A DNA stretch of 27,361 bases from Candidatus Undinarchaeales archaeon (GCA_030753015.1 JASMDC010000046.1:1-27361), one strand, 5' to 3'; positions 4,231 through 24,188 are shown, counted from the stretch's first letter. A program made the numbers and translations. The notes: generated from the letters alone by a model not told the origin.

Positions 4231-4354
4231 GACGGGCATCCTTACATTTACTCGAATTCGAAACGTTTTTATACAACCTGTCGTGCTAAGACATGGCAGG
4301 ATTCTCCTGGGCTTGGAACACCCTGGAGGAAAGGGGACATAGGGGGTACGAGAG

Positions 4355-6744: not shown

Positions 6745-6794
6745 GCTCCTTTAAAGGTCCTCCCGCTTAATAAGGGTGCCGTCAGGCTGATGGT

Positions 6795-7685: not shown

Positions 7686-7791
7686 GTGCCCTCCTGTGCA
7701 CGGTGTGGCCCCGTTCGCATTTAACGTTTTCGCCCAAGGCCGCCTCTTCACTGTCGAAGCCATTATATTGGTTGCTGTCCATAAGGATGTC

Positions 7792-8490: not shown

Positions 8491-8539
8491 CGGCCGGGTC
8501 CGGCTCATTTATTTATTGGTAGCCGTGTTCACGGTGAAC

Positions 8540-9136: not shown

Positions 9137-9184
9137 TCCGGCCGGTGCCGTAGCTATTTATTGGTTGTACCGCACAGAGGATGC

Positions 9185-9775
9185 ATGCCGGAGATCCCCG
9201 TGCACATCGAGCGGTACCAGCAGTTCCTGGCAGTTGGGATCATCGTGGGGCTCATCGTCGTGAGCGTGTACTTCCATGAACGACTCCCCTGGGGTGACAC
9301 TGTCAAGGACCTCTTCCCGACAGATACTCGTGCAGCACTGATAGCTCACATAGCTCTCATTGTGATTGGCCTCACCAGCCTCGCTCTGGCGCTCACGGGC
9401 GAGCGGTTCGTCTGGGCGCTCGACGCCCTTGCCACTCGCCTGGGTACGGCCGAGGTCCACGGCTCAATGTGGAGCGGGATCCTCCGTTGCACGACCCCCG
9501 ACGGAAGGAGCTACTTCCTGTATTACTATCCTGGCAGAAAGCACACTCGCGCCTACTACGAGCTCTGGCTGGAGCTACTGACCGAGCTCGAAGACCTCGA
9601 TTCCGGCGAGCATATCACGGCCATCGACCATCTGGAGAGCATAGCCGTGCGGCCGGGGGATGGCGGAGGCCCGGCGAGACTGGTCGCACACCTCAACGAG
9701 AGCGCAACGTCGACGGACGCTCTTCCCAGAACCCTGGACGCGCTGTTCGAGCTCAGGGACCACAGGCGACAGTGA
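9185..9775 (+). CDS. Two-TM membrane protein, tandem paralog 3
   Basis: MPEIPVHIERYQQF start; LRCTTPDGRSYFLYYYPGRKHTRAYYELW and AIDHLESI motifs. Confidence 0.8.
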   Translation: MPEIPVHIERYQQFLAVGIIVGLIVVSVYFHERLPWGDTVKDLFPTDTRAALIAHIALIVIGLTSLALALTGERFVWALDALATRLGTAEVHGSMWSGILRCTTPDGRSYFLYYYPGRKHTRAYYELWLELLTELEDLDSGEHITAIDHLESIAVRPGDGGGPARLVAHLNESATSTDALPRTLDALFELRDHRRQ

Positions 9776-9785
9776 GAACTGATCG

Positions 9786-9974
9786 TCATTCGACCTTGAT
9801 GCTCTTCTCCTTGATCTCGTTCAGTATCAGGTTCGTTTCCGTCCTTTCGATGAACTCGTACGTCTGTATATTCTTGAGGAACGCGTCCATGGATTTCCTG
9901 TTCTTCAACTTGGCGATGATCACGACATCGAAATGCCCGGTAACGTCGTAGACGGTAAAGACGTGCGGATTGAT
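9786..9974 (-). pseudogene. 3' remnant of Lrp/AsnC family regulator (effector-binding RAM domain only)
   Basis: Hand translation: INPHVFTVYDVTGHFDVVIIAKLKNRKSMDAFLKNIQTYEFIERTETNLILNEIKEKSIKVE*; no HTH domain and no start codon ahead of this segment, in-frame stop about 25 nt upstream. Confidence 0.8.
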
Positions 9975-10095
9975 GCGCGAGCTTCTCGGATAGGAGCTCT
10001 TTCAGAAGTTCGCTGAGACGAAGGAGAGGGAAGCGGAAGAGTCCAGGGTAGCTGTCACCGACTGGGACCTCGAGAAATACCTGGAAGCGTGCTAG
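9973..10095 (+). pseudogene. glnA: 3' remnant of type I glutamine synthetase
   Basis: Hand translation: MRELLG*ELFQKFAETKEREAEESRVAVTDWDLEKYLEAC*; matches the GSI C-terminal LG..F...K..E......VTDWE...YL pattern; internal TAG at 9991-9993. Confidence 0.7.
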
Positions 10096-10108
10096 AGGAT
10101 GGCCTGTA

Positions 10109-10828
10109 TCAGTGCAGACTGCGCCGCACGTCCGCGGGCGGGAAGTGACCGACCCAGGCCACGGCCACCGCCGCGAGCAGCAAGGGCCTGGTCACGAGGA
10201 TGAACCATGTCACGCCCCATGTCGCCTCAGCGTAGGCCGCTATCAGCGCTAGGAGGAAGGAGATCGCGCACGCCGCCAGGCGGTACATCATCATCTTGCT
10301 CCGTGCCTTGAAGGAGAGGAGAGGTATGGCCAGCGCAAGGACCGCTCCCGGTATGAGGCCCCACAAGGTCAGTATCCCCAGGGCAGTGCGGTCGTTGACG
10401 AACCAGGAGGTCCCCCAGACACCAAGGCTGTAGACGCCCAGACCCCCTTGCCATACGAGGACGCTGGCAGCCACACCCACCAGGAGCAGGAGGGTCGGGA
10501 GGCGTTCAGCGATCCCACCCGAGCGGTTTTCCGACATGAGGCCCACGAGGTAGGATGCCACCGGCACCGAGAGCACGCCCTGGACCACGAGGGCAAGTAG
10601 GAAGAGGATCCTGTCGATCCGCGGGAGGCCGATGCTGCCGGCCAGCTGACGCAGCCCGATGAGACCGTAGAGCAGTGTGGACAGGAGCCAGAAGACCGTG
10701 ACGCTGTCCGCCAGCCGGTCACGGAGCTCGACTAGCCGCGAAGCGAGGACGGCTGTGGCTGCCGCGAGCAACAGTGCACTGCATCCATTGAGCAAGTTGC
10801 CAATCACAGCAATGTCTACCTCCTGCAA
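10109..10828 (-). CDS. Hypothetical polytopic (about 7 TM) membrane protein
   Basis: Hydrophobic 3' part of the 396-aa track ORF; TTATAAAG box at about 10846-10853 and AGGAGGT RBS; start is TTG 10828 or GTG 10807. Confidence 0.65.
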   Translation of the reverse strand: MQEVDIAVIGNLLNGCSALLLAAATAVLASRLVELRDRLADSVTVFWLLSTLLYGLIGLRQLAGSIGLPRIDRILFLLALVVQGVLSVPVASYLVGLMSENRSGGIAERLPTLLLLVGVAASVLVWQGGLGVYSLGVWGTSWFVNDRTALGILTLWGLIPGAVLALAIPLLSFKARSKMMMYRLAACAISFLLALIAAYAEATWGVTWFILVTRPLLLAAVAVAWVGHFPPADVRRSLH

Positions 10829-10916
10829 CTGGAGAGCACCACATGCTTTATAATGCTGAACCCGTGGCCGCGCCCGGGTGTTAAACATAAAAGGGTTGCC
10901 CGACCCACTCCACGCG

Positions 10917-12320
10917 ATGGGAGCGCTCTTCGGCACTTCGGGCATGCGGGGAATCGTCAACCTCGAGATAACGCCACCACTGGTACTCAAGACCGGGATG
11001 GCGCTGGCGGCATCGCTGGACCACTGCGGCAGCGTCGCCGTGGGGACGGACCACCGTACCTCTGCGGAGGCCATCAAGCGCGCTATGGTCGCGGGCATTC
11101 TGGCAGGCGGATGCAACGTGATGGACGTCGGATTGGCCCCCACCCCGACAATCGTGTACGCAGGTTCCAAGCTCGGGTGCGACGCGTCCGTGAGCATCAC
11201 CGCCTCGCACAATCCGCCCGAGTACAACGGCATCAAGCTCTGGAATTCCGACGGCTCGGGTTTCTCACGGGAGCAGGAGGCTGATGTCGAGGAGCTCATC
11301 CTGGGCGCTCAGGTGCCAGGCGTCGAGTGGAACAACGTCGGCAGGGTGTTCCAACGCCCGCACGCCTCACGCACTCACATCGATGCGATCATCACGGCCC
11401 TGGGCCATGTGGACGGGTTCTCTGTTGTGTACGACGGCGGGTGCGGTGCCGGATCAAAGGTCACTCCCTACCTCCTCCGTGAGCTGGGGTGCAAGGTGTT
11501 CACGCTCAATGCCAACCCCGATGGAAGGTTCGATCCGAGGGACCACTTGCGGGGCGAGCCCCTCCCGGCCGCGGGTGATTGGAACCGCATTGCGGACCTG
11601 GCCAACCTCGTCGACACGGTCTTTGCGACCGAGGCCGATTTGGGGCTGGCCAATGACGGTGACGCGGACCGTGTGCTCGTCGTGGACGAGACCGGTACTG
11701 TTGTCCCTCCTGATGTGCTCATCGCCTTCTTCGCCGAGCAGGCACTGAAGGAGAAGAAGGGCGGTACAATCGTCACCACCGTCGAAAGTTCGATGCTCAT
11801 CGAAGAGGTCGCCAAGAAGAACAAGGGCAAGGTCGTGCGCACTCCCGTGGGTGACGTGTTCGTCTCGCGGGCGGTGAAGGAGCACGGTGCGCTCCTTGGT
11901 GCCGAGCCCGCGGGGACCTTCATATTCCCTGACCTTCACCTGTGCCCCGACGGCCCGTTCTCGGCAGCGTGTGCGGTGCGGGTGCTCGCTGAGCACGGCA
12001 GGCCGCTGTCCGAGATCCTGGCCGTGTACGAGCGCTACCCCATGGGTCGGCTCCGTCTCGAATGTCCCAATGAGCGCAAGGCGACTGCCATGGACGCCAT
12101 CGCCGTGGAGCTCGAGGACGCTCTCTCGGGGATCAAGGGCATCGATACCGCTGACGGCATCAGGGCCGAGCTCAAGGACGGTTGGATCCTGGTGCGGCCC
12201 TCCGGCACCGAGCCCATTCTACGGATCACCACCGAGGCACGGGACCAGCAGGCGCTCGACACCACGCTCGAGGCCGCTCAGGAGGCCGTGGGCGACATAA
12301 TCGCCCGGGTGACGCGGTAG
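10917..12320 (+). CDS. glmM: Phosphoglucosamine mutase / alpha-D-phosphohexomutase
   Basis: LFGTSGMRG, ITASHNPPEYNGIK, DGDADR, LGAEPAG, VRPSGTEP motifs; directly upstream of a glmU-like gene. Confidence 0.92.
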   Translation: MGALFGTSGMRGIVNLEITPPLVLKTGMALAASLDHCGSVAVGTDHRTSAEAIKRAMVAGILAGGCNVMDVGLAPTPTIVYAGSKLGCDASVSITASHNPPEYNGIKLWNSDGSGFSREQEADVEELILGAQVPGVEWNNVGRVFQRPHASRTHIDAIITALGHVDGFSVVYDGGCGAGSKVTPYLLRELGCKVFTLNANPDGRFDPRDHLRGEPLPAAGDWNRIADLANLVDTVFATEADLGLANDGDADRVLVVDETGTVVPPDVLIAFFAEQALKEKKGGTIVTTVESSMLIEEVAKKNKGKVVRTPVGDVFVSRAVKEHGALLGAEPAGTFIFPDLHLCPDGPFSAACAVRVLAEHGRPLSEILAVYERYPMGRLRLECPNERKATAMDAIAVELEDALSGIKGIDTADGIRAELKDGWILVRPSGTEPILRITTEARDQQALDTTLEAAQEAVGDIIARVTR

Positions 12321-12321
12321 C

Positions 12322-13458
12322 GTGGAAGCGGTCATCCTCGCCGCCGGCCAAGGGACGCGGATGCGCCCCATCACGCCCGGTGTCCCCAAATCGCTCATCC
12401 CCGTGGCCAACCGCCCATTCCTCTCCCTTGTCGTGGACCGGGTACGGGCAGCTGGTGCAAAGCGTATCGTGGTAGTGGTCTCCCCGGAGAACCGTGACGC
12501 GATCCAGAACGCGCTGGATGACGTACAGGTCGCGGTCCAGGAGGTGCCCCGCGGTACCGCCGACGCTGTGGCGGCCGCTGAGAACGCCGTAACGGACGAC
12601 TTCCTCCTGGTCAACGGCGACACTCTCATCGAGGTGGACGACCTTCGCCGCCTTGCGGACGAATCAGGTTGTGCCATGGGGCTCGCGCGTGTGGACGATC
12701 CCTCTGCGTACGGCATCGCTGAGGTCGTCGACGGTCGCGTGGTGGCCATCGACGAGAAACCCGAGCATCCCCGGGGCGACCTCGCCAACACCGGTACCTA
12801 CCGGCTCACCAGGGCGGTATTCGATGCCATCCGGCGGACGCCGCTCTCGGAACGGGGCGAGCTGGAGCTTACTGCTTCTCTCATGCTCCTGCACGAGCGA
12901 GGGACACCGGTGCATGCATGCCTCATCGAACGCGGGTGGCGTGATTTCGGTGCCCCCTGGCACGTGCTCGACCTCAACGACGAGGCGCTGGCCGTGCTCG
13001 AGGCCCCCACACCACGGATCGACGGCGCCATCGTCAACGGCCCTGTGGTGCTGGGCACAGGGTGCACGGTGGGCGAGGATGCCATCATCCAGGGTCCTGC
13101 TGTGGTCGGCAACGGGTGTGAGATCGGTGCCGGTGCACGCATCGGTCCGGGATCGTCCGTGGGCGCGGGGTGCGTGCTGGGTGACGGGAGCGTCGTGGAG
13201 GGCTCGGTCCTGTGCGAAAGGGTCACGGTCGGTGATGGTGCGCAGGTGCTCTCCTCCGTGCTCGGGGCCGGGGCGACCGTGGGGATGGCGGCCACTCTTC
13301 TGGACACGAACGACGACAGCTCGACGGTCCGGATGACCGTGAAGGACAGGGACCTCGACACAGGCCGCACGCGGTGCGGTGCACTGGTCGGGTGCGGTGC
13401 CGCCGTGGACGACATGGAGGTCGTGTTCCCGGGATCGCTTGTGTTTGCGATGGAATGA
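12322..13458 (+). CDS. glmU: Sugar-1-phosphate nucleotidyltransferase with left-handed beta-helix (archaeal GlmU-like)
   Basis: AVILAAGQGTRMRP, PKSLIPVANRP, GTADAV, VNGD, EKP, SERGELELT, hexapeptide repeats, DTGRTRCGALVG. Confidence 0.85.
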   Translation: MEAVILAAGQGTRMRPITPGVPKSLIPVANRPFLSLVVDRVRAAGAKRIVVVVSPENRDAIQNALDDVQVAVQEVPRGTADAVAAAENAVTDDFLLVNGDTLIEVDDLRRLADESGCAMGLARVDDPSAYGIAEVVDGRVVAIDEKPEHPRGDLANTGTYRLTRAVFDAIRRTPLSERGELELTASLMLLHERGTPVHACLIERGWRDFGAPWHVLDLNDEALAVLEAPTPRIDGAIVNGPVVLGTGCTVGEDAIIQGPAVVGNGCEIGAGARIGPGSSVGAGCVLGDGSVVEGSVLCERVTVGDGAQVLSSVLGAGATVGMAATLLDTNDDSSTVRMTVKDRDLDTGRTRCGALVGCGAAVDDMEVVFPGSLVFAME

Positions 13459-13460
13459 CC

Positions 13461-13494
13461 GTGAACTACCCCTCTCAGAAGGGGACTTCCCGCC
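13461..13494 (-). mobile_element. Short IS200/IS605 right-end remnant (hairpin)
   Basis: GTGAACTACCCCT-ctcaga-AGGGGACTTCCCGC, nearly the same as the element at 27262; CCCCT/AGGGG stem, terminal TTCAC on the minus strand. Confidence 0.65.
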
Positions 13495-13539
13495 GAAACG
13501 TAAAAAAGAGTTAAAAAAACGTACGACCAATCCACGAGC

Positions 13540-15057
13540 GTGGTAGTCTGCCTCGTCAATCCACCGCAGCTGTCCACACCCTACCAAGTGACGGACGGCC
13601 TCATGCCGCCCCTTGGCATCATGTTCCTTTCCGCAGTGCTCAAGAAGGAGGGGTTCGATGTGCACGTAATCGATGCACCGGGCGAGGCATCGACGAATCG
13701 GTACGAGCATGACGGGAACCCGCTCCGCGGCCTCGGGATCGAAGCGATCATCGAGCGCATCCCCGAAGGGACGCGGCTCGTGGGGATCGCCGGTATCTTC
13801 TCCATGAACCACCACGTACTCATGGAGCTTGCCCATTCCGTCAAGGAACGGTTGCCAGATGTCATCGTGGTCGTCGGGGGGTCACATGCGACCGCCGTGG
13901 CCGAGTACGTCATGAAATCCGAGGATGTTGATGTCGTGTGCCTGGGGGAAGCTGAACGCTCGCTGCTCGCCCTTTGCCACACCCTGGAGCGTAACGGATG
14001 GCGGACGGTCCCAGCCGACCTTGCTGGGATCGCGGGGATAGCCTACCGTGACGGGGAGCGTATCGTAGTCAATAGGGACGTGGAGCTCATCGACGACGTG
14101 GACGCTATTCCCTATCCCGACTGGAAGAGCGTGCCCATGGAGACCTACTACACCTCTAAAGAAGCGAATGGACCGGTATGGACCGATCGCTGGGTACCGC
14201 TGCTCTCCTCACGGGGCTGTCCGTACGACTGTGCCTTTTGCAGCACACCGGCCATATGGCGTCGTCGATGGCGTCCGCGCGACCCGGTCAAGCTCATCGA
14301 CGAGATAGCCTGGCTCCAGCGTGAGCATGGGATCCAGGAGGTGCACTTCGAGGACGAGAACATGAGCACCGATCCCAAGAGGCTGGAAGCGTTCTGTGAC
14401 GAGCTCGTACGACGGGACATCGGTATCAAGTGGCAGGCAGCGAACGGAATGCGCGCCCACGGCCTCGACAGGGAGCTGCTGACAAAGATGGTCGCCTCCG
14501 GGTGCACGAACCTCGTGCTCGCCCCCGAGTCAGGTTCCCGCTGTCTCCTCCGTGAGGGACTTAACAAGGACATCGACCTGGACGAGATCGCGCAAGCTGG
14601 TCGGACCGCCCACGGACTGGGACTGCGTACGTCCACATTCTTCATGATGGGCATGCCCGGGGAGACACGAAGGGACGTCGCCCGGACCCTGGTATATCTC
14701 ATGCGGCTGGCGTTCGCTGGGGTGGACGAGTGCTCGATCGGGCAGTTCGTGCCTCTCCCCGGGAGCCGTCTGTTCGACCGACTGCGCTCCGAGGGACGGA
14801 TCGAGCTCGATGACGCGTTCTTCCGCTCGCTCACGGCAATGGGCGATCTCTCCTCGTCACGCTCGTGGTCCGAGCACTACTCCAATCCGGAGCTGAAGAT
14901 ATACCAGCTGATCGGCCTCGGCCTGTTCCACGTCACCCGGCTCGTGTTCCATCCCGTGAGCACGGCACGGACCTTCGCCAATGTGCTCAAGGGACGGCAG
15001 GAGCTGAAGAGCGAGCGGTTCCTCATCTCGAAGCTACGCCGGTTTAGAGGTAGATGA
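13540..15057 (+). CDS. Cobalamin-binding radical SAM protein
   Basis: LVNPP, PPLG, VGGSHAT, GEAE B12-binding domain; SSRGCPYDCAFC; FEDEN; PESGS; FMMGMPGET; PLPGS. Confidence 0.93.
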   Translation: MVVCLVNPPQLSTPYQVTDGLMPPLGIMFLSAVLKKEGFDVHVIDAPGEASTNRYEHDGNPLRGLGIEAIIERIPEGTRLVGIAGIFSMNHHVLMELAHSVKERLPDVIVVVGGSHATAVAEYVMKSEDVDVVCLGEAERSLLALCHTLERNGWRTVPADLAGIAGIAYRDGERIVVNRDVELIDDVDAIPYPDWKSVPMETYYTSKEANGPVWTDRWVPLLSSRGCPYDCAFCSTPAIWRRRWRPRDPVKLIDEIAWLQREHGIQEVHFEDENMSTDPKRLEAFCDELVRRDIGIKWQAANGMRAHGLDRELLTKMVASGCTNLVLAPESGSRCLLREGLNKDIDLDEIAQAGRTAHGLGLRTSTFFMMGMPGETRRDVARTLVYLMRLAFAGVDECSIGQFVPLPGSRLFDRLRSEGRIELDDAFFRSLTAMGDLSSSRSWSEHYSNPELKIYQLIGLGLFHVTRLVFHPVSTARTFANVLKGRQELKSERFLISKLRRFRGR

Positions 15058-15059
15058 GC

Positions 15060-16913
15060 TCAGGTGTCCTGCCAGCAGTTTCCGTCCAGACCGCACTCCG
15101 CATCCTGGGGACAGCCACACACCTGGCATGCGGGTACGAGCCCCCGTTCTCGTACGCAAAGGAACGGCTTCACTGCGGAGCATGAGCCGTGGTTGGTTCC
15201 ATCGTCACATATCTGGTCCGGATCGTAGCACCGATCGTCGGAGTAGCACCCCATGCCGTCCGGACAGCCGCAGAGGGCGCAGTCGGGGATGAGCGATGGT
15301 TTGTCCGGCTCGCAGTAGTTACCGCCGCCGGCCGCACAGGTGCCCGCTGGTGTACCGTCCGCGCATGACTCGTACGGGTAGGGAAGGAACCAGCCACGGA
15401 TGCCCCCGGCGTCGTCCATGGTCCCCGATGCACGGGCCGTGGTCTCGATGAACCTGCTTGCCCCGTCGCTGAACGTGACGTGGAGGAGGACGTGGTTGAT
15501 GGTGCGTGGCGCGGACAGGCTGTCCGAGTCGACGTAGGCGAACTGCAGGTGCATCCCGTACGACGCGTGCCCGTTACCTGCCATGACGAGCGCGGCCATG
15601 AGCACCGCCGAGTCACGGCAGCTCCCCCGTCCCTCAGTGAGGGTCTCCAGTGGCCACTGGGCCGTTTCGTTGGTGACCTGGTAGATCATGAGCCGGTTCT
15701 TGAGGTTGTACACCTCGTCGATGAACTGTCGTGCCGTCCGGCCATCGGTCAGGTCGCCGATCACGTCGGTGAACGCCTCCGGCCGCACGAAGGTGCGGTA
15801 GTCCGGCGTGGTGAGGTTCTCCTCCGTGCAACCAGGGCAGGAGATGGGCCGGTAGTACACGGGTCGGGGCGCCGATACCAGGGTGCGGTAGGTGTCCACG
15901 GGCATGTTCCACACCACGGTCTCCCCGCGATTGTCGGGGTACTGCCAACGGATCGTCCCCTCGTTGATGACAGTGTGGAATCCCTCGGGCGACGTCGTCT
16001 GTGGCCGTTCGACGCAGTACGAGCGGTCGGTGTCGCACGCATGGTCCGGCGGGCAGTCCGCATCCGTCCGGCAGCACAGTGTCCCCGCAAGGCAGCACAC
16101 CCCTCCTGCACAGTTACCGCTCGCGCACTCGCCCGATGCATTACAGTCGCCACCATTGGGCACGTGCGTGACGGTCGGGGACGGTGAGGGTGTGGATGAC
16201 GGTCCGGTCCCGTCCCCCGTACAGGCCGACTCGGCATGGTCGCACGCCATCCCTCCGGGACAGTCGCGGTCATCCTGGCAGCATGTCCTGCCCACGGTAC
16301 AGCACACGCCGTTGATACAGTTGTCGCTGAGGCACTCATCGTCCACGGTGCACGGCATGCCGTTGAGCCGCGTGGCCTCAGGTACCGTCCCCCCGCTCCC
16401 CGGTGTAGGTACCTGACTGGTGCCTGCCACGCAGTAATAACGGTCCGTGTCGCACTGCTCCTCCGGGCCGCAGTCCCGGTCATCGAGACAGCATGCATTG
16501 CCTTCGAGGCAGCACACTCCGGCCCCGCAGTTACCGCTGAGGCACATGTGGTCCCCGTCGCACATCATGCCGTTGCGGCGCGGTGCTTGGGTGGGTGAAG
16601 ATGTGGGTGCTGGTGTTTGCGAGGGTGTCGGGAGTGGGATGCAGAAGGACCGGTCGGTATCGCAGCGATCCCCATCGTCACAGTCACGGTCGGTGCTGCA
16701 ACAGTCCCTCCCGAGCAGGCAGCATATGCCGTTCCGGCAGTTGCCGCCGAGGCACTCCATATCATCGGAACAGGGCTCGCCGATCCCGGACAATGGCGGT
16801 GCTGCTATGGGTAGCGTGGTGGGTGCAGGGCCCGTGTCGGTCTGCTCACCGACGCAACCCGATATGAGGACGAGTGCGAGGACGAGCGCCGCGACCATCC
16901 GTCCCGGGACCAT
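15060..16913 (-). CDS. Secreted lipoprotein with Cys-rich repeats and a transglutaminase-like domain
   Basis: Lipobox-like LVLISGC; four 10-Cys repeats; WPLETLTEGRGSCRD (Cys), NHVLL (His), FIETT (Glu) triad; two C-terminal 8-Cys repeats; start 16913 or 16898. Confidence 0.8.
   Translation of the reverse strand: MVPGRMVAALVLALVLISGCVGEQTDTGPAPTTLPIAAPPLSGIGEPCSDDMECLGGNCRNGICCLLGRDCCSTDRDCDDGDRCDTDRSFCIPLPTPSQTPAPTSSPTQAPRRNGMMCDGDHMCLSGNCGAGVCCLEGNACCLDDRDCGPEEQCDTDRYYCVAGTSQVPTPGSGGTVPEATRLNGMPCTVDDECLSDNCINGVCCTVGRTCCQDDRDCPGGMACDHAESACTGDGTGPSSTPSPSPTVTHVPNGGDCNASGECASGNCAGGVCCLAGTLCCRTDADCPPDHACDTDRSYCVERPQTTSPEGFHTVINEGTIRWQYPDNRGETVVWNMPVDTYRTLVSAPRPVYYRPISCPGCTEENLTTPDYRTFVRPEAFTDVIGDLTDGRTARQFIDEVYNLKNRLMIYQVTNETAQWPLETLTEGRGSCRDSAVLMAALVMAGNGHASYGMHLQFAYVDSDSLSAPRTINHVLLHVTFSDGASRFIETTARASGTMDDAGGIRGWFLPYPYESCADGTPAGTCAAGGGNYCEPDKPSLIPDCALCGCPDGMGCYSDDRCYDPDQICDDGTNHGSCSAVKPFLCVRERGLVPACQVCGCPQDAECGLDGNCWQDT
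16014..16781 (-). repeat. Four copies of a 10-Cys protein repeat separated by Pro/Thr/Ser linkers
   Basis: Spacing C-x5-C-x4-C-x4-CC-x5-CC-x5-C-x5-C-x6-C is the same in all four copies. Confidence 0.9.
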
Positions 16914-16941
16914 AAGAAGACAGGTGGCGCCCAAAGATTAT

Positions 16942-17925
16942 CTACCTATCGATAACGGGGACGGTCACAGCATCGCGCCATCGCCGGTGGTAGGCGAGCG
17001 CCGCCATGGCACCGATGCACCCGCGCCTGCCCGTGACCGGTTCAAGGCCGACGGAGGGAAGGGTCGCGGCCGTGCTGAACGTGTCATCAATGCTCACCAC
17101 AGCTCCCCTTGCGGCCCGACCGAAGAACGAGAGCGCTGGTGGGACGTCCCGGCCATGGAGCCAGGCCAGCCCCGTGTGCTCGGACAGGGTCCACTTCTCC
17201 AGGAGGTGGCGGGCCCTTCGCAGGAGAGCGTCACGTCCGTCCGTTGGTACGGCGAGCGTGATCGCGGTGGCCACGCAGTTGCGCGTTCGGTGTGGGGCGC
17301 TGGGGTAGAGCTGGGCGAGAGCGTGGTAGAGATAGTCTCCCAGTCCACCTTCCTGGAGCGCGGTCCCGAGGGTGTGACACAGGGACCACGTGGATCCCTC
17401 GTCCTCGGTGTCCGTGTCGTCGACACCCAGTACGACCTTCTCCCGGAGCGGGAGCACGACCGTGGCAGAGCTCTTTCGTGAGCCTCCCGGGGGTTCGTGG
17501 ACCACGATGCGCAGCACACCCTTGGCGAGCCCGCGGGAGATACATGCCCCGACCCCACCTCCGCCGAGACCGTGGTACGTGACACGCACCTCATCGGCCT
17601 CCCGGTCCACGACCACAGCACCGATACCCGCGGGGCGGAGGCCAGGTACCAGTTCTGGCTCGACATCACCGGTACACAGGTCATAGATGGCGAGCGTCCC
17701 CTCACGTTGCGCGCTGGTGACCAGCTTACTGGCGGCCGGGTAGTGGTGGCCTGTCCATGCAGCACCGCCGAGGCAGCTGCCCTCCTCTACGAGCTCGACG
17801 AACGTGGGATCCGCTGGATCGACCGTGGCAGTGATCCGCTTCGTGGAGGTCGCCCAGGGGACGTCCGCTACCAGGGAACGCAGCTCCGAGGGCAGGTGCT
17901 CACCGGGTGACAGCTCCAGCGCCAT
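16942..17925 (-). CDS. mmp11: Methanogenesis marker protein 11 (C-terminal half TiaS-like)
   Basis: VELVEE.SCLGGAAWTGHHY, TYHGLGGGGVGA, LGVDDTDTEDEGSTW, QLYP...RTRNCV, GRRGCIGAMAAL; likely start MALELSPG at 17925. Confidence 0.85.
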   Translation of the reverse strand: MALELSPGEHLPSELRSLVADVPWATSTKRITATVDPADPTFVELVEEGSCLGGAAWTGHHYPAASKLVTSAQREGTLAIYDLCTGDVEPELVPGLRPAGIGAVVVDREADEVRVTYHGLGGGGVGACISRGLAKGVLRIVVHEPPGGSRKSSATVVLPLREKVVLGVDDTDTEDEGSTWSLCHTLGTALQEGGLGDYLYHALAQLYPSAPHRTRNCVATAITLAVPTDGRDALLRRARHLLEKWTLSEHTGLAWLHGRDVPPALSFFGRAARGAVVSIDDTFSTAATLPSVGLEPVTGRRGCIGAMAALAYHRRWRDAVTVPVIDR

Positions 17926-17945
17926 GGCACCGACGCCGCTGACAA

Positions 17946-17956
17946 GCTTAATAAAC
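17946..17956. promoter_or_regulatory. Bidirectional TATA element for mmp11 and the mtxX operon
   Basis: CTTAATAAAC is the only AT-rich stretch in the 53-bp gap between starts at 17925 (-) and 17979 (+). Confidence 0.65.
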
Positions 17957-17978
17957 CATGCGCCCGGTGGTGGAGGGT

Positions 17979-18827
17979 ATGGGGGCCACCGTGTGGGAGG
18001 CGGTCGTGGCCATGGCACGGGAAAGACCGTCCAAGGTGGCGCTTGGCATGCGTCCCGGTGTGTCCCCTGATGATGACGCCTTCCTTGCCGACGCTGAGCG
18101 GTTCCGATCAGAGGGTTTCGGTTGCCCGATCGTCGTGACGCTCCCCGGTGTGCAGGTCCCCGGCGAACTGGACGTGATCGAGGCCAAGGATCCCGAGCGT
18201 GAGCTCGTCCGCCTGCTGGCCGACGGCGAGGTGGATGCTGCCGTCCGCGGTGCCCTGGACGCCGCAACGACCCTGGGGCACCTGAAGCGCGCCTTCAACG
18301 TCCCTTCGCTCTGTCGTATCGCCCTCCTTCGTGCTGCGAACGGGCAGGAGTTCTTCCTCGCGCCCGTGGGCGTGGTGGAGGGTGCTGCAATGGTCGACCG
18401 TCTCGAGCTCGTGCGACGGTTCACCGAACTGGCCGCACTCCTTGGGATCGAGCCCAAGATATCGGTGCTCGCCGAGGGCAGGATGGAGGACCGTGGGCGA
18501 GGCCGAACCGTGGAGGAGAGCCTTCACGAGGCCGAGCTCATCACGAAGCTGGCCCGGGACCGTCTCGGAGTGACGGACGTCCGGATGACGGGCATCGTCA
18601 TCGAGGAGGCCTTGGAGGACGGACCTCGTCTCGTGCTGGCGCCGAGCGGACCTACCGGCAATCTAGTGTTCCGGAGCCTCGTGTACCTGGGCGCAGGGGA
18701 AGCTCTGGGTGCCCCCGCCTGCTCCCTCCGCCGTCCCTTCGTGGACGTGTCCCGTGGTCGAACGGACGTGCTCAATGCCATGGTCTTCGCGTCCGCGATG
18801 GTGGCCGGGGGATGGGATAATGGGTGA
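17979..18827 (+). CDS. mtxX: Methanogenesis marker protein 4 / MtxX (phosphotransacylase-like fold)
   Basis: VDAAVRG, FFLAPVGVVEG, EPKISVLAEGRMEDRGR, LAPSGPTGNLVFRSLVYLG, FVDVSR motifs; GGAGG before ATG 17979. Confidence 0.88.
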   Translation: MGATVWEAVVAMARERPSKVALGMRPGVSPDDDAFLADAERFRSEGFGCPIVVTLPGVQVPGELDVIEAKDPERELVRLLADGEVDAAVRGALDAATTLGHLKRAFNVPSLCRIALLRAANGQEFFLAPVGVVEGAAMVDRLELVRRFTELAALLGIEPKISVLAEGRMEDRGRGRTVEESLHEAELITKLARDRLGVTDVRMTGIVIEEALEDGPRLVLAPSGPTGNLVFRSLVYLGAGEALGAPACSLRRPFVDVSRGRTDVLNAMVFASAMVAGGWDNG

Positions 18828-20346
18828 TCTGGCCCACGCGCTGGCCGACACACTGGCCGCGCTCGGCTCCCGTCGATGCATGTGCAACCCTGGCCAGGAC
18901 GTCGTTGCCGTTATCGATGCCCTGGAGGGCAGTATGGGGACTACCATGTTCCCAACAGAAGTGGGGGCAGGATTCGCCGCTGACGGGTATCGTCGTGTGG
19001 ACCCGCGGGGGACGGACCTTCCCGTGTGCGTCGTGACCGGCAAGGCCGGTGCCGCACACCTCGCCCTCCCGCTCGAGAACGCGTTCGCCGACGGAGTCGG
19101 GATGCTCGCAGTGACGGGCAGGTGCACCGTGGAGCTTGCGACGGTGAGCGTGGCAAACGTCGACATCGGCGATAACACCAGCAAGGGCCTTCCTGAAGTG
19201 GTGAACGCCTTCGAGCTCGCATGTACGCCACCGCAGGGTCCGGCGCTCGTCACGCTCGACCGTACGGCCCAGTACGGACCGGCCGAAGCAGCGCCCCGTG
19301 AGCTTACCTTCGGGCATCGCGATCCCTCTCCGCGCGATGTGGAACAGGCCACGGACATCATCGCGAGCGCCGAACGACCGCTCATCCTCCTGGGCACTGG
19401 CTGCCTGTCAGGGGACGTGGAGGGCCTGCGCGAGGCCGTGACGGCCATCGGGATCCCCTGTGTGACCTCGATGCCTGCGCGGGGTGTCGTGGACGAGGAG
19501 CTCGAGCAGTGCCTCGGTCCTGCCGGTATGCGCGGCAAGGCAGCAGCGAACGACGCCCTGCGCGGGGCCGACGCTGTCCTCGCCGCTGGCTGCTCACTCT
19601 CTCATCTGACGGTCCCCGTCGGTGCACTGGACGGCACGCGTGTGTTCCGGGTGGACGTACGTGGGCAGGCCGATGCCGATACGGATGCTGCGGCCTTCGT
19701 CACAGCGACCCTACACGCCGTCGATGAGCGTGAGCCGTGGGTCCGGGCCGATGGACCGCTCGTGTACGAGGGTTCGTTCGCGGCACCGGTCGCGGTATCG
19801 TCGATCATGGACACCCTCCGCCCCGGCGACTGCCACGTCTATGATGTGGGGGCGTTCTCCATGTGGGCGTGTGCTGCCGGCACCGTCCGTGAGCCGGGAT
19901 CCTTCCTCATGCCCCATAACGTGTACCCGCTCGGGTACGCCGTCCCGGGGGCCATCGGCGCCCTCATGCGCGGGACACGAGAAAGGATCGTGGCCGTGTG
20001 CGGCGATGGAGGTTTTGTCGCATCGCTGGCCACCCTCCCTATGGCCGCTGAGCACGACATCACGATCGTGGTGCTCGATGACGGGGGGATGGACATCATC
20101 CGCCAGCGGCAGGTCGAGCGAGGGCTCTCCACTTTGACCTCGCACCTACCCCGGACCGATCCCGTGGCGTTAGCGCGTGGCTGTGGCATCGAGTCCGTGC
20201 GTGTCGACCGTCGCGAGGACCTTGTGGCCCAGCTCGAGGGTGCGGGCCGCGGAGCGCTCCTAGTACACTGTCGGCTGGAGCGGGGCCCCAGGATCCTGGG
20301 CGCTCTGGATGGCAACAATTTTAAAGTCAGGGATGGTTCGGGATGA
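18820..20346 (+). CDS. Thiamine diphosphate-dependent enzyme (acetolactate synthase/decarboxylase superfamily)
   Basis: TEVGAGFAADGY (catalytic Glu), GMRG, LGYAVPGAIG, CGDGGF...VVLDDGG ThDP-binding motif; start overlaps the mtxX stop. Confidence 0.9.
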   Translation: MGDLAHALADTLAALGSRRCMCNPGQDVVAVIDALEGSMGTTMFPTEVGAGFAADGYRRVDPRGTDLPVCVVTGKAGAAHLALPLENAFADGVGMLAVTGRCTVELATVSVANVDIGDNTSKGLPEVVNAFELACTPPQGPALVTLDRTAQYGPAEAAPRELTFGHRDPSPRDVEQATDIIASAERPLILLGTGCLSGDVEGLREAVTAIGIPCVTSMPARGVVDEELEQCLGPAGMRGKAAANDALRGADAVLAAGCSLSHLTVPVGALDGTRVFRVDVRGQADADTDAAAFVTATLHAVDEREPWVRADGPLVYEGSFAAPVAVSSIMDTLRPGDCHVYDVGAFSMWACAAGTVREPGSFLMPHNVYPLGYAVPGAIGALMRGTRERIVAVCGDGGFVASLATLPMAAEHDITIVVLDDGGMDIIRQRQVERGLSTLTSHLPRTDPVALARGCGIESVRVDRREDLVAQLEGAGRGALLVHCRLERGPRILGALDGNNFKVRDGSG

Positions 20347-20347
20347 C

Positions 20348-21358
20348 GTGGTCGGTCACATCCTGCAGCTGAAAGCAGAGCTCCTCGCTGATGGCCGGGT
20401 CCGCCTTCATCCGGGCGTTTCCACGATCGGCATCATCTCCGCCCCAACCGCAGGACCGGCAGCGGGCGAGTCTACCGTGTTCATCCGCCTTGACGGCTCC
20501 CGGGTGCGCCTCAGGCTCGACGACCATGCACGTGTGGCCCTGACGGCCGAGGGGACGCTCGAGCGTGACGGTGAGGTCATCGCCACCGGTGTCAAGCTTG
20601 AGCCCGTTGTGGCACACTGCCCGGAACAGGTGTACACGACCGTGGTCCCAGGATGTATCCACAAATGTGCATTCTGCGCCCTTTCGGGGCACGTAGCTGC
20701 CGCCCGCTCCGAGGAGATAATTATTTCACGTATCGAGCATGCATTCAAGTCATCGGTGGTTGTCCCCGTGGCGCTCACGTCCGGTGTGTCACCCGACGGT
20801 TCCGAGCTGGACCTCTGCGTGAGAGTCGTGAATCGCATCAAGGACAAATGGCGCGTGGTCCCGGTCGGAGTGTCGATCTGCATCAAGGACAAGAAGGACC
20901 TCGAGCGGCTCCTTGAGGCCGGGTGCGACGAGATCAAGATCAACCTCGAGGTGGCCGATCCGGACATCCTTCGCAAGGTGTGCCCCCATAAGGACCGGGA
21001 CGCCATCATCGCTCTCATGAAGGAGGCCGTTGAGATGTTCGGCCGGGGCAGAGTGTGCTCCAATATCATCCTCGGCCTCGGGGAGAGCGATCAGGCCGTG
21101 CTGGACACCATGAAAGAGCTTGCAGCAATAGGGGTCGTGGCCAACCTGCGACCGTTGGAGGTGACGCTGGCCGTTGAGCCCGCCCTGGAGCGTGCTCTGG
21201 GGATCGGGGGTTTCGCTCGACCGCAGGCCGACCGGCTCATCCGGCTGGCAGAGGCGCAGTGCAAGATCCTCGCCAAGCACCGTCTTTCGGCCTCCGGTAT
21301 GGACACGATGTGCTCGGCATGCACGGGGTGTGACCTGGCTCCTGGAGAGGACCTGTGA
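20348..21358 (+). CDS. Radical SAM protein (biotin-synthase-related) with extra C-terminal CxxCxxC
   Basis: AHCPEQ, GCIHKCAFC, ALTSG, IKINLE, SNIILGLGE, TMCSACTGCDL; start is GTG 20348 or ATG 20333. Confidence 0.88.
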   Translation: MVGHILQLKAELLADGRVRLHPGVSTIGIISAPTAGPAAGESTVFIRLDGSRVRLRLDDHARVALTAEGTLERDGEVIATGVKLEPVVAHCPEQVYTTVVPGCIHKCAFCALSGHVAAARSEEIIISRIEHAFKSSVVVPVALTSGVSPDGSELDLCVRVVNRIKDKWRVVPVGVSICIKDKKDLERLLEAGCDEIKINLEVADPDILRKVCPHKDRDAIIALMKEAVEMFGRGRVCSNIILGLGESDQAVLDTMKELAAIGVVANLRPLEVTLAVEPALERALGIGGFARPQADRLIRLAEAQCKILAKHRLSASGMDTMCSACTGCDLAPGEDL

Positions 21359-21370
21359 GGTGACCGGGGC

Positions 21371-22543
21371 GTGGTGCGCGAGCTGACGGACGTGGGAGCG
21401 GCATCACTGTACGCACAAAGGATACGACTGAAGGGGCCGATCGAGCTCTACGATTCAACTCTCCGGGACGGCGAGCAGACCCCTGGCGTGTGCTTCACCC
21501 CTGACGAGAAGGAGGCGATCGCGCGCGAGCTCGACGCAGTGGGCGTACCCATCATCGAGGCCGGATTCCCTGTGGTATCGCCCAAGGAGGCCGAGGGCGT
21601 CAGGCGGATCGTGGCTGCTGGACTCGACGCGCGGCTAGTGGCGCTCTCGCGACTCAGGGATGAGGACATCGACGTCGCCGTGGACTGCGGTGTGGATGGC
21701 GTGCTCCTCTTCATCGCGAGCTCGGACGTCCATCTCGACCACAAGCTCCACATGGACCGGGAACAAGTACTGGAGGCCGTCGCCTCTAAGGTTGCCTATG
21801 CTCGCGACCGTGGGCTCCGTGTCCAGTTCACTCCCGAGGACGCGTCCCGGACAGATCCTGCATTCCTCAAAGAAGTGCTCGCCACTGCCGAGTGGGCGGG
21901 TGCCGAGCGTGTGGGCGTGGCCGATACCGTGGGTATCCTCGATCCGGCAGCGACCAGACGGCTGGTGCGTACGGCCATGGAGGCCGTGAAGGTACCGGTC
22001 TCCGTCCACCTCCACAATGACCTGGGTCTGGCGACCGCGAACACCCTTGCAGCCTTCGAGGAGGGGGTCGTGGCCGCTGCCGTGACGGTGAACGGCATCG
22101 GCGAGCGTGCCGGAAACGCCTCCCTGGAAGAGGTCGCTGCGTCGCTGGCCGTCCACTACGGGTACGACTGCGGCATCGACCTCTCCCGACTCACAGAGCT
22201 ATCCGAGCTCGTCTCCCATCTCACGGGCATACCCGTACCAGGCAACAAGGCGGTGGTCGGCCCCAATACGTTCACCCACGAGTCCGGTATCCATGTGGCC
22301 GCAGTACTGGAGGAGCCTGCCACCTACGAACCGTTCCCAGCTGAGCTCGTGGGAGGGCGGCGCAACCTTGTGTTCGGCAAACACAGCGGACGGAAGGCCG
22401 TGCGCCACCTCCTTCGGAAGGAGGGTCTCGCTCATGGTCCCGATGCCGTCGGTCGCGTGCTGGCACTGCTCAAGGACGTGGAGGGGCCGTTGACCCATCG
22501 GGAGCTGATTGTGCTGACAAGGGACGGGGGTACGATGCAGTGA
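21371..22543 (+). CDS. aksA: Homocitrate synthase family (DRE-TIM), no regulatory domain
   Basis: DSTLRDGEQTPG, IEAGFP, EDASR, ADTVG, HLHNDLGLA, NGIGERAGN, HESGIH, GKHSG; 390 aa lacks the LeuA C-terminal regulatory domain. Confidence 0.8.
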   Translation: MVRELTDVGAASLYAQRIRLKGPIELYDSTLRDGEQTPGVCFTPDEKEAIARELDAVGVPIIEAGFPVVSPKEAEGVRRIVAAGLDARLVALSRLRDEDIDVAVDCGVDGVLLFIASSDVHLDHKLHMDREQVLEAVASKVAYARDRGLRVQFTPEDASRTDPAFLKEVLATAEWAGAERVGVADTVGILDPAATRRLVRTAMEAVKVPVSVHLHNDLGLATANTLAAFEEGVVAAAVTVNGIGERAGNASLEEVAASLAVHYGYDCGIDLSRLTELSELVSHLTGIPVPGNKAVVGPNTFTHESGIHVAAVLEEPATYEPFPAELVGGRRNLVFGKHSGRKAVRHLLRKEGLAHGPDAVGRVLALLKDVEGPLTHRELIVLTRDGGTMQ

Positions 22544-23544
22544 CCATACCTCTCGTGGTGGTCCGTGGCGATGGTGTGGGGCCCGAGGTCGTTGACGCGG
22601 CCCTTGCGGCAGCATCCCCCCTTCTGGACGGCTTCGAGCTCGTGGAGGCCCGGATGGGGTTGACATGCTACCGGGAGACTGGGAGCGCGCTGCCCGCGGA
22701 CACGCTCGAGATGCTACGGGACGGAGGGCTCGCCCTCCTTGGCGCGGTCCAGACCCCGCCCAACGCCCATTACAGCTCGCCATTGTTACGTATGCGACGG
22801 GAGCTCGACCTGTTCGCCAACCTGCGCCCGGTCCGCGACCTCCGTGGCGGGCCCGTCGACCTGGTGGTCGTGCGGGAGAACCTCGAGTGCCTGTATGCCG
22901 GTCTCGAAGGCGGTAATGAGGACACTGCCCTGGCGATCCGCGTGATCACACGACAGAATTGCGAGAGGATATCGCGGTTCGCTCTGGAGCTCGCTCGTGA
23001 CCGGTCGGAGGATCACCGGAAGGTGACCTGCGTGCACAAGGCCAACGTACTGGCCCAGACCTGCGGTCTCTTCCGAGACACCTTCACCAGGGTGTCCGGG
23101 GACTACCCGGACGTGCCCGTGGACGAGCTCCATGCGGATGTGTGCGCCATGCGGATGGTCATGGATCCAGGCTCCATGGACGTTCTTGTCACCACCAACA
23201 TGTTCGGTGACATCCTCTCCGACCTGGCCGCGGGACTGGTCGGCGGCCTTGGCACGGTGCCCTCGGGCAACATCGGCGAGCGATGCGCGGTGTTCGAGCC
23301 CGTCCACGGTGCCGCACCAGACATCGCTGGGAAGGGTGTGGCCAATCCGGCCGCCGCCATCCTCTCGCTCGCCATGCTGCTCGAGCATGCGGGGGACATT
23401 GACGGTGGTCGCCGCCTCTCCCGCGCGGTCGAGTCGTGCGTGCTCGCAGGGGAGACCACACCGGACCTTGGCGGGTCCCTTGGCACCGACGCGGTCGCTA
23501 GGGCGGTCCTGCATCGGCTGGAGACCGATACGGTGGAGGGATGA
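22540..23544 (+). CDS. aksF: Isocitrate/isopropylmalate family beta-decarboxylating dehydrogenase, probable homoisocitrate dehydrogenase
   Basis: [56 protein letters not shown]; coupled to the aksA-like gene; AksF versus LeuB assignment is from context. Confidence 0.75.
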
Positions 23545-24188
23545 GGTTGCGCTGGAACGCTCACGTGATGCTCGCGCTGTGCGGACTTCCTGTCATGGCA
23601 CGCCTCCTGCCCGGCTTCGACCTGTTGGCGGACGGGTTTGTGGCCGCCGTAACGCTCTGTCTGGCCGCCATGCTCCCCGACTTCGACCGGGTGGAGGGGC
23701 TGGACCAGGTTCCCGGCTACCTAACGGGCGTCTGGCGACGCACTCTGGCAGGATGCGTGGTGCTCTATCCCCTGTTCCTCGTAGCCCGTTACATGAATGG
23801 CTGGCGCCCTGTCACACCGGACCTGGGGCTCATGCTGCTGCTCTTGGTCCTGGTCGTGGCCTCGTTCGTGGTGCTTGCCATCGCGTTCGCGCTCCTCACA
23901 CGCCTGCTCGGCCTCGCCCATCGGAAGCTACTCCATTCCCTCGTGCTACCGGTCACTGGCGCTGCTGCTGCCATGATTGAGGGCATTCCCATCATAGTCC
24001 CTGTAGCGTTCGTTCTTGGTTTCGGTTCCCATGCACTGGCCGACGCGCTCACACCGTCCGGTGTGTACCCGTTCTATCCCCTCTCGACCCGCCGGATCTC
24101 CCTGGACGTCGTACGCACCGGCGGGTGGGGCGAGCGCTCCTTCTTGGTCGTGTTCTTCATCACGTTCGTGGCCCTGAGTATATTCTAG
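23541..24188 (+). CDS. Membrane-bound metal-dependent hydrolase (YdjM-like)
   Basis: N-terminal His, [25 protein letters not shown] motifs; ATGA overlap with aksF. Confidence 0.85.

Follow-up and report, generated by a model that had tools for sequence, protein, structure and literature searches.

Could a gene cluster in a marine archaeon in which mcrA is not found encode the late steps of coenzyme B (CoB) biosynthesis? The question is raised by a 27,361-nucleotide (nt) stretch of DNA from a Candidatus Undinarchaeales archaeon (GCA_030753015.1, JASMDC010000046.1:1-27361), which is the entire contig C58 of the host assembly and which we call the window. Its positions 16942-24188 hold seven genes: mmp11 (methanogenesis marker 11), on the minus strand, is divergent from plus-strand genes coding for MtxX, a thiamine diphosphate (ThDP)-dependent enzyme, a radical S-adenosylmethionine (SAM) enzyme, AksA-like and AksF-like proteins, and a YdjM-family protein. 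An earlier note on this DNA, made from the sequence alone, had described this layout, correctly for all seven genes and their coordinates, and had read it as a candidate cluster for the CoB steps that lack assigned genes.

Coenzyme B is required for every biological methane-forming and methane-oxidising reaction, and its synthesis after 2-oxosuberate has had no assigned genes for decades. That premise of the note calls for a qualification: the pathway is still called unknown in the available part of a 2025 article, but the same text suspects MMP16 and/or L-ASST in the thiol step (PMC12068725). In the accessible text of PMC3087415, MtxX is listed with unknown function, and the Aks steps alone are given for CoB. 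We found no literature assigning mmp11, MtxX, the radical SAM family of the window, or the DUF7714 protein and IlvB paralogue described below to CoB synthesis, in a search that most subscription journals and supplementary tables lay outside.

We propose that the cluster encodes a coenzyme B-type thiol pathway, which is the best explanation of the observations and one that we consider moderately probable; the assignments of individual steps are less certain than the pathway as a whole. The CoB reading is strengthened by related clusters in seven mcrA-positive Halobacteriota and in an mcr-less genome, by phyletic patterns, and by protein trees, and is weakened by the absence of mcrA from the host. 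The interpretation in the earlier note is thus supported in part, the association of these families with the Aks genes being far stronger than could be seen from the window itself. The window cluster and its fuller methanogen versions provide a short list of candidate genes, two of them methanogenesis markers of unknown function. If confirmed, they would fill the last large gap in the cofactor biosynthesis of methanogens, offer new targets for methane mitigation, and aid Mcr expression in other hosts. That the cluster is present in a marine archaeon without Mcr further prompts one to ask what other uses the thiol has.

The cluster is conserved and belongs to its host

All seven genes are kept in the same order and orientation in a second genome of the same genus (G001), at 80-87% protein identity, and the arrangement is therefore not a chance run of open reading frames (ORFs). 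The host assembly (G000; 3.85 Mb in 117 contigs) is 98.92% complete and 5.01% contaminated, and the composition of the window matches the bin, with a GC content of 0.636 versus 0.603 for the genome and a tetranucleotide correlation of 0.971 versus a bin mean of 0.979 (standard deviation 0.019). A mis-binned contig was considered and is ruled out by this composition together with the same cluster on a 111-kb contig of G001. We note that the host, at 3.85 Mb and 60% GC, is assigned to a class whose 15 other sampled genomes span 0.6-1.2 Mb, and given this size contrast and the contamination figure its taxonomic placement or bin deserves a second look.

Two samples were used for comparison: 151 archaeal genomes (28 mcrA-positive and 123 mcrA-negative; the first sample) and 151 Halobacteriota genomes (92 mcrA-positive and 59 mcrA-negative; the second). 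Neighbourhood counts refer to the best 80 radical SAM loci, with partners scored within 10 kb. Two other mcr-less carriers of cluster genes are designated G023 and G047.

The same families are linked to aks genes in other archaea

The window is a variant of a recurring cluster that links mmp11, the radical SAM enzyme, a ThDP protein, and an XcbA-type reductase (DUF7714) to Aks genes. Four mcrA-positive Halobacteriota (L198-L201) have genes for the radical SAM enzyme, an IOR-alpha-like ThDP protein, aksA, aksD, aksE, DUF7714, and aksF in one direction, opening with an mmp11 paralogue and then mmp11 ahead of the radical SAM gene. Three more mcrA-positive loci (L202-L204) carry mmp11, the radical SAM gene, an opposite-strand gene (read in L202 and L203 alone, and coding for archaeal CobT in L203), an IOR-like protein gene, aksA, aksD, aksE, aksF, and DUF7714; the DUF7714 gene thus lies between aksE and aksF in four methanogen genomes and directly after aksF in three. 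In the mcr-less G023 a single run comprises mmp11, radical SAM, DUF7714, aksA, aksD, aksE, aksF, and an IlvB-type ThDP enzyme. The genes for mmp11, the radical SAM enzyme, and DUF7714 also occur together in Hydrothermarchaeum (L049), with mtxX 7 kb off, and in a Methanarcanum genome, and in six Methanomassiliicoccales-type loci aksA is no more than 10 kb away from the radical SAM gene, with DUF7714 present too in five of them.

By coordinates, the radical SAM and DUF7714 genes are about 4 kb apart in 18 of the 151 Halobacteriota genomes and 6.7-8.2 kb apart in three more, and seven of these 21 close pairs were checked at the gene level. A radical SAM relative is encoded in 319 of 326 candidate stretches (one genome per species), the best 80 loci belonging mostly to Methanosarcinales, Methanothrix, Methanomicrobiales, and Methanomassiliicoccales. 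Over these 80, partners are aksA-like (8 loci), DUF7714 (8), mmp11 (4), aksF (3), ThDP (2), and mtxX (2), and most Methanosarcina and Methanothrix loci have no cluster partner within 10 kb. YdjM occurs at one of the 80 loci, that of the same-genus genome, and is not part of the conserved gene set. The membership proposed in the earlier note is thus upheld for mmp11, the radical SAM enzyme, a ThDP protein, and the Aks genes, all of which recur, but not for YdjM, and MtxX is clustered in one genus only. The gene-neighbourhood and phyletic profiling that it called for shows linkage conserved elsewhere, with mmp11, MtxX, and the radical SAM enzyme tracking mcrA.

As a separate observation, cobamide nucleotide-loop genes flank mmp11 and the radical SAM gene in L203 (1486-6752) and L204, both mcrA-positive; CobY (2mzb, 95 bits) and archaeal CobT (3u4g, 248 bits) were identified by PDB match, and, judged by eye, two membrane proteins upstream are candidates for CbiB and CobS. 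Threonine phosphate is used in the synthesis of both cobamides and CoB.

The radical SAM enzyme and its XcbA-family partner

The radical SAM enzyme passes PF04055 (62.5 bits versus a gathering threshold of 29.5). In the family alignment the cysteines of the CxxxCxxC motif (C116, C120, and C123) are invariant, as is a second, C-terminal triad, CxxCxxC (C335, C338, and C341). An N-terminal domain of about 100 residues with an AGPGAG stretch is also conserved, and homologues align from about residue 14-17. Among solved structures the closest to it are those of biotin synthase (8vdw, 48 bits) and lipoyl synthase (5exi), both at low scores, and it falls below the cut-offs of BioB (53.9 versus 225), LipS2 (67.4 versus 270), and LipA (30.6 versus 310). 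A role in biotin synthesis was considered and rejected: five mcr-less carriers have no BioB above cut-off, and the sole BioB-like match in the host is the cluster radical SAM enzyme itself.

In G023 the gene following that for the radical SAM enzyme codes for a DUF7714 protein of the XcbA family. The host has a candidate gene of this kind outside the window (C34:34420-35271), scoring 146.1 bits on PF24830 (threshold 25) and 74.9 on NCBIfam NF052538 (cut-off 150). XcbA is a [2Fe-2S] enzyme that reduces sulfoethanethioaldehyde to the coenzyme M (CoM) thiol in Xanthobacter, according to the available text of PMC9457059. In the first sample DUF7714 is present in 11 genomes, exactly those with a full-length radical SAM match of at least 302 bits; nine further genomes have partial radical SAM matches (74-125 bits). 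It was found in five of five additional genomes carrying the radical SAM gene, and among the Halobacteriota 68 genomes have both genes, seven the radical SAM gene alone, two DUF7714 alone, and 74 neither. Most Halobacteriota carriers of the radical SAM gene are mcrA-positive (73/75), and only two of the 59 mcrA-negative genomes have it. By analogy with XcbA, the pairing suggests that the last thiol-forming step may be the reduction of a thio-carbonyl intermediate.

A cysS gene lies directly upstream of the radical SAM gene in 21 of the 80 loci (including L023, L029, L031, L032, and L039), an adjacency seen in loci of both Methanomassiliicoccales and Methanothrix; L029 has a run of a PALP enzyme, a hexapeptide acyltransferase, CysRS, and the radical SAM enzyme. 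The adjacency hints at cysteine as the sulfur source.

These observations also bear on whether mmp11, the radical SAM enzyme, DUF7714, and MtxX serve some other methanogen-type process, such as formation of the CoM thiol or sulfur trafficking, their adjacency to aks genes reflecting shared regulation. The reaction demonstrated for XcbA yields CoM, the cysS adjacency and the L029 run would suit such a role, and the pair is present in Methanosarcina, Methanothrix, Methanomicrobiales, and Methanomassiliicoccales and was not found in six other mcrA-positive families of the first sample, a distribution like that of the non-ComABC route to CoM. However, DUF7714 adjoins the aks genes themselves in seven methanogen genomes, no known route to the aldehyde precursor of CoM was found in the host (ComA, ComE, and MMP16 being absent), and mmp11 and MtxX are also present in methanogen families without the radical SAM/DUF7714 pair. 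We regard this alternative as quite unlikely.

The Aks-like proteins group with methanogen paralogues

The AksA-like protein (390 amino acids) has HMGL-like and HCS_D2 domains only and no LeuA regulatory domain. In a tree built from 44 members of the LeuA family in 18 genomes (after removal of a truncated duplicate; characterised AksA/AksF sequences are not among its rows), it falls in a 16-row short-form clade (Shimodaira-Hasegawa-like approximate likelihood ratio test [SH-aLRT] 93), sister to proteins of two f44 methanogens (92). Nine mcrA-positive genomes each contribute exactly one paralogue of about 390-410 amino acids to this clade, and the long LeuA/CimA-type forms make up two separate groups. 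Among solved proteins, homocitrate synthase (6ktq, 286 bits) is the closest, and the second host paralogue, on contig C27, pairs with a LysS-like protein (SH-aLRT 97).

The AksF-like protein is below the equivalog cut-offs of NF040626 and NF040619 (342.8 versus 540 for AksF2_Meth, and 322.8 versus 500), but the AksF models rank best, its leuB score being 222.9 against a cut-off of 353.2. Its best PDB matches are the homoisocitrate dehydrogenases 3asj and 1x0l (276 bits), with isopropylmalate dehydrogenases at 208 bits or less, and the cluster-encoded AksF of one mcrA-positive genome is likewise below cut-off (313.7 versus 540). There are no aksD or aksE isomerase genes in the window; homoaconitase-type genes sit on contigs C24, C27, and C40.

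The ThDP enzyme belongs to a methanogen-linked IlvB paralogue clade

All three Pfam TPP_enzyme domains (N, M, and C) are present in the ThDP enzyme, which is far below every acetolactate synthase cut-off (141 bits versus 866 at best, and 138 versus 538.35 for TIGR00118). Bit scores alone could not sort the orthologues, the G023 enzyme scoring canonical IlvB and paralogues about equally (300-346 bits), but a tree of 58 IlvB-family proteins did so. The cluster enzymes of the host, G001, G023, and G047 lie within a 13-row clade (SH-aLRT 98) that otherwise consists of the second, shorter IlvB-like protein (494-569 amino acids) of the mcrA-positive families f6, f39, f50, and f58, and whose sister group consists of 42 canonical IlvB rows. 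The clade persists when either long-branch pair is dropped (SH-aLRT 99 and 98.9), and all 13 rows derive from mmp11-bearing genomes. In the tree placement that the earlier note asked for, the AksA-like protein falls with methanogen short paralogues; the ThDP enzyme lies in a methanogen-linked IlvB-paralogue clade.

The window enzyme retains the catalytic glutamate (E48) and GDG396-398, and 48 of the 124 columns that are at least 95% identical in canonical IlvB; 12 IlvB-conserved columns are altered in all 13 clade members. In the available text of PMC5311999 the MJ0663-type IlvB paralogue of methanogens is uncharacterised, and we believe the 13-row clade to be a candidate match to this MJ0663 group. 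We also considered orthology of the window enzyme with the IOR-like protein at the same place in the Halobacteriota clusters, but BLASTP gave no match; we take the latter to be an unrelated choice of ThDP protein at that position and not an orthologue.

The two sets of proteins bear together on whether the Aks-like and ThDP genes belong to ordinary amino acid biosynthesis (LeuA/LeuB/IlvB, or lysine via aminoadipate) and merely lie beside methanogenesis markers. The host has no canonical IlvB or acetolactate synthase above cut-off, the cluster enzyme is among only three of its ThDP proteins that match the acetolactate synthase model, and the best solved relatives of the Aks-like proteins belong to lysine pathways, all of which would agree with such a role. 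However, IlvC was not found in the host or in G001 and is present in 14 of 14 control genomes. Neither a long-form LeuA nor a LeuB above cut-off was found in the host, which yielded two AksA-type paralogues, both short, and the other IlvB-like gene (C31) is IolD-like (644 bits). The host is seemingly without branched-chain amino acid synthesis. Moreover, the AksA-like protein groups with the short paralogues, the ThDP enzyme stands apart from the 42 canonical rows and has lost acetolactate synthase-conserved columns, and the cluster is conserved with mmp11 and the radical SAM enzyme in other lineages. Separate candidate lysine-route genes also exist, in the form of a LysS-like synthase with LeuCD-type genes (C27) and a homoaconitase/dehydrogenase set (C24). 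The branched-chain version of this alternative is ruled out by the missing IlvC and canonical IlvB, the trees, and the lost IlvB columns, and an amino acid role overall is very improbable.

mmp11 and MtxX track mcrA

The mmp11 protein passes the TIGR03280 cut-off (266.1 bits versus 255.8, and 267.4 bits in a genome-wide search) and matches Pfam TiaS_TCKD (36.9 bits). An N-terminal domain with a GLGGGGVG stretch is followed by a TiaS-type kinase domain with a DDTD motif, in which D149, T151, and D152 are invariant and D150 nearly so (16 aligned sequences). The family match begins at residue 143 of the ORF, and an 88%-identical homologue (P0122; 338 amino acids) has a much shorter N-terminus; for these reasons the start is likely the ATG at 17925, and the 114 upstream codons are improbable as coding sequence. 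MtxX is under the TIGR03270 cut-off (173.9 bits versus 190) but shows clear homology to MTH_231 (PDB 9nzy, E 3e-32), and weakly matches the branched-chain phosphotransacylase 1yco (E 0.001).

In the first sample mmp11 is present in 31 genomes and MtxX in 30. They are found in 26 and 25, respectively, of the 28 mcrA-positive genomes, with the misses in one family with divergent Mcr, and the only carriers among the 123 mcrA-negative genomes are five: G000, G001, G023, G047, and G148, the last with 276 kb of its sequence outside the search. Thus 26 of 31 mmp11 carriers have mcrA, the host and G001 being among the exceptions. Both proteins are also present in methanogen families that do not have the radical SAM/DUF7714 pair. 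MtxX is tied to the cluster by its position in one genus and by this phyletic pattern.

In TiaS, ATP phosphorylates a carbonyl oxygen that an amine then displaces, and DDTD is the ATP-binding motif of its kinase domain. The CoB amide bond and phosphate are each reportedly formed in an ATP-dependent step, from the work of White's laboratory. A kinase-type mmp11 and an MtxX with the phosphotransacylase fold would fit an acyl-phosphate route to the CoB amide, by analogy with these enzymes; of all parts of the model, this one is the least certain. In L198 (1337-2353), L200, and L201 the gene immediately upstream of mmp11 is a second, divergent paralogue, with no match in L199; the L198 copy scores 180.6 bits on TIGR03280, below cut-off, and has the TiaS kinase domain. 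This paralogue of the Halobacteriota clusters could be a second ATP-dependent enzyme.

A proposed coenzyme B-type pathway in a host without Mcr

Several observations weigh against a CoB pathway in this host. No mcrA was found in the host, G001, G023, or G047, with control-genome matches in two methanogens only, and the canonical CoB user is therefore missing. The earlier note had tied its reading to the presence of some CoB-using enzyme, for which the sole candidate is an hdrC-hdrB-hdrA-like operon on contig C50 at or near cut-offs (HdrC, 163.7 versus 160; HdrB, 343.1 versus 345.15; HdrA2-like, 717 versus 1100); HdrB is marginally below its cut-off, and HdrABC-like enzymes occur in nonmethanogens. 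CoM, the partner thiol, may not be made in the host, given that neither ComA, ComE, MMP16, nor any other COG1900 protein was found there (best TIGR03287 match, 36 bits). The radical SAM gene is absent from 19 of the 92 mcrA-positive Halobacteriota, and in the first sample it and DUF7714 were not found in the mcrA-positive families f6, f17, f27, f39, f50, and f58; because it is missing from these genomes and families, the radical SAM/DUF7714 route is clearly not universal among methanogens. The demonstrated role of XcbA is in CoM rather than CoB synthesis. A member of the IlvB-paralogue clade was seen in families f1, f6, f11, f39, f50, and f58 alone, and the window enzyme has no BLASTP similarity to the IOR-like protein of the Halobacteriota clusters. 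Finally, MtxX is in the cluster in only two of the 80 radical SAM loci, both from the window genus.

On the other side, the absence of a COG1900-type protein (MMP16 or L-ASST), the other suspected thiolation route, counts in favour of the CoB reading. The host also has an MtrH homologue (350.4 bits versus a cut-off of 271.4), as do G001, G023, G047, and Hydrothermarchaeum. We note that the mcr-less G023/G047 lineage (L017 and L068) has the cluster together with MMP16 above cut-off (463 bits), three HdrB proteins above cut-off, and MtrH, and its gene content suggests that it could make both CoM and CoB although it has no Mcr.

The missing Mcr could alternatively mean that the product is some other thiol or cofactor made from an elongated 2-oxoacid, particular to Mcr-less archaea, with another chain length or head group and built by CoB-type enzyme families. 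The absence of mcrA and of a known CoM pathway in the host is in keeping with this, as are the divergence of the window proteins (MtxX below cut-off, mmp11 barely above, and the ThDP enzyme with 48 of 124 IlvB columns) and the extra coupled gene, ydjM, confined to the window genus. Nevertheless, the nearest relatives of each conserved cluster member are methanogen proteins, mcrA-positive genomes have a cluster of the same genes, and MMP16 and the three above-cut-off HdrB proteins of the mcr-less G023 fit true CoM/CoB chemistry. We consider a different thiol unlikely.

A proposed pathway

For a CoB-type product, the AksA-like and AksF-like proteins, with homoaconitase encoded elsewhere, would extend 2-oxoglutarate to 2-oxosuberate, which the IlvB-paralogue ThDP enzyme would decarboxylate to 7-oxoheptanoate. 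The radical SAM enzyme and the XcbA-family [2Fe-2S] protein (C34) would then insert sulfur and reduce the product to 7-mercaptoheptanoate. With ATP, mmp11 might convert the carboxylate to an acyl phosphate and/or phosphorylate the threonine hydroxyl, and MtxX would hand the acyl group to threonine. As Mcr is missing from the host, some other enzyme would use the product, and a disulfide reductase of the HdrCBA type is the most plausible one. The chemistries named in the earlier note are all represented by proteins of the window (a ThDP enzyme, a BioB/LipA-like radical SAM enzyme, MtxX with the phosphotransacylase fold, and mmp11 with a TiaS-like kinase domain), but its list was incomplete, having missed the XcbA-family partner encoded on C34, which appears essential.

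More tentatively, and as something that we think possible rather than probable, the late CoB pathway in general would consist of mmp11, MtxX, a ThDP decarboxylase, and the radical SAM/XcbA-type pair. Some lineages would use an IlvB paralogue as the decarboxylase and others an IOR-alpha-like protein, and in many the thiolation pair would replace the COG1900 route. Widespread marine archaea that lack Mcr would still make the thiol and cycle it with HdrCBA and MtrH-linked methyl metabolism, and CoB would then not be solely a cofactor of methane or alkane metabolism.

Organization and surroundings of the cluster

The features of the cluster are listed in Table 1, with junction spacings calculated from homologue-supported start codons; the earlier description of overlaps or gaps of 12 bp or less holds with later start choices. 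The octamer in the divergent intergenic region is about 26-28 nt from the candidate starts at 17925 (minus strand) and 17979 (plus strand), and from archaeal promoter geometry we infer a shared divergent TATA-box region giving leaderless transcripts.

Table 1. Features of the cluster and the junctions between its genes
Feature	Position	Strand	Remarks
mmp11 (methanogenesis marker 11)	16942..17925	-	Full ORF reaches 18267
Divergent intergenic region	17926..17957		Single AT-rich octamer TTAATAAA at 17948-17955
MtxX/methanogenesis marker 4 homologue	17958..18827	+	Phosphotransacylase (Pta/Ptb) fold; alternative start 17979
MtxX to ThDP enzyme junction			8-nt overlap, with ThDP start ATG 18820
ThDP-dependent enzyme, IlvB-paralogue clade	18820..20346	+	ORF from 18709; likely start ATG 18820
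ThDP enzyme to radical SAM junction			38-nt overlap, or 14 nt if radical SAM starts at M9
Radical SAM enzyme	20309..21358	+	Pfam Radical_SAM; alternative start M9
Radical SAM to AksA-like junction			12-nt gap
AksA-like short-form homocitrate-type synthase	21371..22543	+	HMGL-like and HCS_D2
AksA-like to AksF-like junction			4-nt overlap
AksF-like homoisocitrate-type dehydrogenase	22540..23544	+	Best equivalog AksF2_Meth
AksF-like to YdjM junction			4-nt overlap
YdjM-family membrane protein	23541..24188	+	Pfam YdjM, 41.5 bits; translationally coupled to aksF

Beginning 7 nt past the mmp11 stop, a minus-strand gene (15060-16934) codes for a 624-amino-acid protein that is kept in G001 at 78% identity. 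It has a signal-peptide-like N-terminus followed by SGC and four Cys-rich repeats, has no Pfam or NCBIfam match, and has repeat-bearing paralogues on at least 14 other host contigs. Convergent with it is a plus-strand gene (13540-15057) for a B12-binding radical SAM protein (Pfam B12-binding and Radical_SAM). The remainder of the left part (1-13500) holds ordinary genes, including those for RNA 3'-phosphate cyclase, a D-2-hydroxyacid dehydrogenase, an M20 peptidase, a phosphoglucomutase/phosphomannomutase, and a sugar-nucleotidyl transferase, and several ORFs without a family match. Rfam and tRNA scans of the window gave no matches, and sigma-70 and terminator scans were at chance level, the sigma-70 model not being relevant to this archaeal DNA.

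Cluster DNA is present in marine, seawater, and hydrothermal-vent metagenomes (12 studies), and 11 metagenome runs contain at least 0.97 of the sampled words of the cluster, nine of these being possible assembly sources. Four short contigs of one metatranscriptome library match exactly within the radical SAM, aksA-like, and aksF-like genes and the ORF after ydjM; they are no more than a hint of expression, as these are contigs alone and DNA carry-over is possible. At 22091-23387, marine contigs of other organisms share short conserved stretches with the aksA-like and aksF-like genes before diverging; these are genes of relatives and not variants of the window locus.

Comparison with known systems

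The cluster resembles the AksA/AksDE/AksF pathway of methanogens in having a short-form synthase without a regulatory domain that groups with the single short paralogue of each methanogen, and a dehydrogenase scoring best on AksF2_Meth. It differs in that the window has no isomerase genes, the scores are below cut-offs, and the host lacks Mcr. The ThDP enzyme shares with IlvB the three ThDP-enzyme domains, the catalytic glutamate, and GDG, but it clusters with the shorter IlvB-like methanogen protein, retains only 48 of 124 conserved columns, and is found in a genome without IlvC or a small subunit.

Like BioB and LipA/LipS2, the radical SAM enzyme combines a CxxxCxxC core with a second conserved cysteine triad that could hold an auxiliary cluster; unlike them, its triad is C-terminal (CxxCxxC), it has a distinct N-terminal domain of about 100 residues, and its scores are far below their cut-offs. 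Similarly, mmp11 matches the TCKD domain of TiaS and keeps DDTD, its relatives match the FLD domain too, and carbonyl activation is the chemistry needed for joining an acid to threonine. In contrast to TiaS, mmp11 lacks the tRNA-binding part, has another N-terminal domain, and forms its own family (TIGR03280), the G023 copy reaching 50.3 bits where the TiaS model has its cut-off at 600. Finally, the XcbA-E pathway of CoM synthesis differs in its partners, which here are the aks genes, the radical SAM enzyme, and mmp11 rather than XcbB-E, in its sulfoacetaldehyde-derived substrate, where a C7 acid would be expected here, and in that the host DUF7714 gene is on another contig, but the likeness is that an XcbA-family protein accompanies the radical SAM enzyme of the cluster in almost every carrier.

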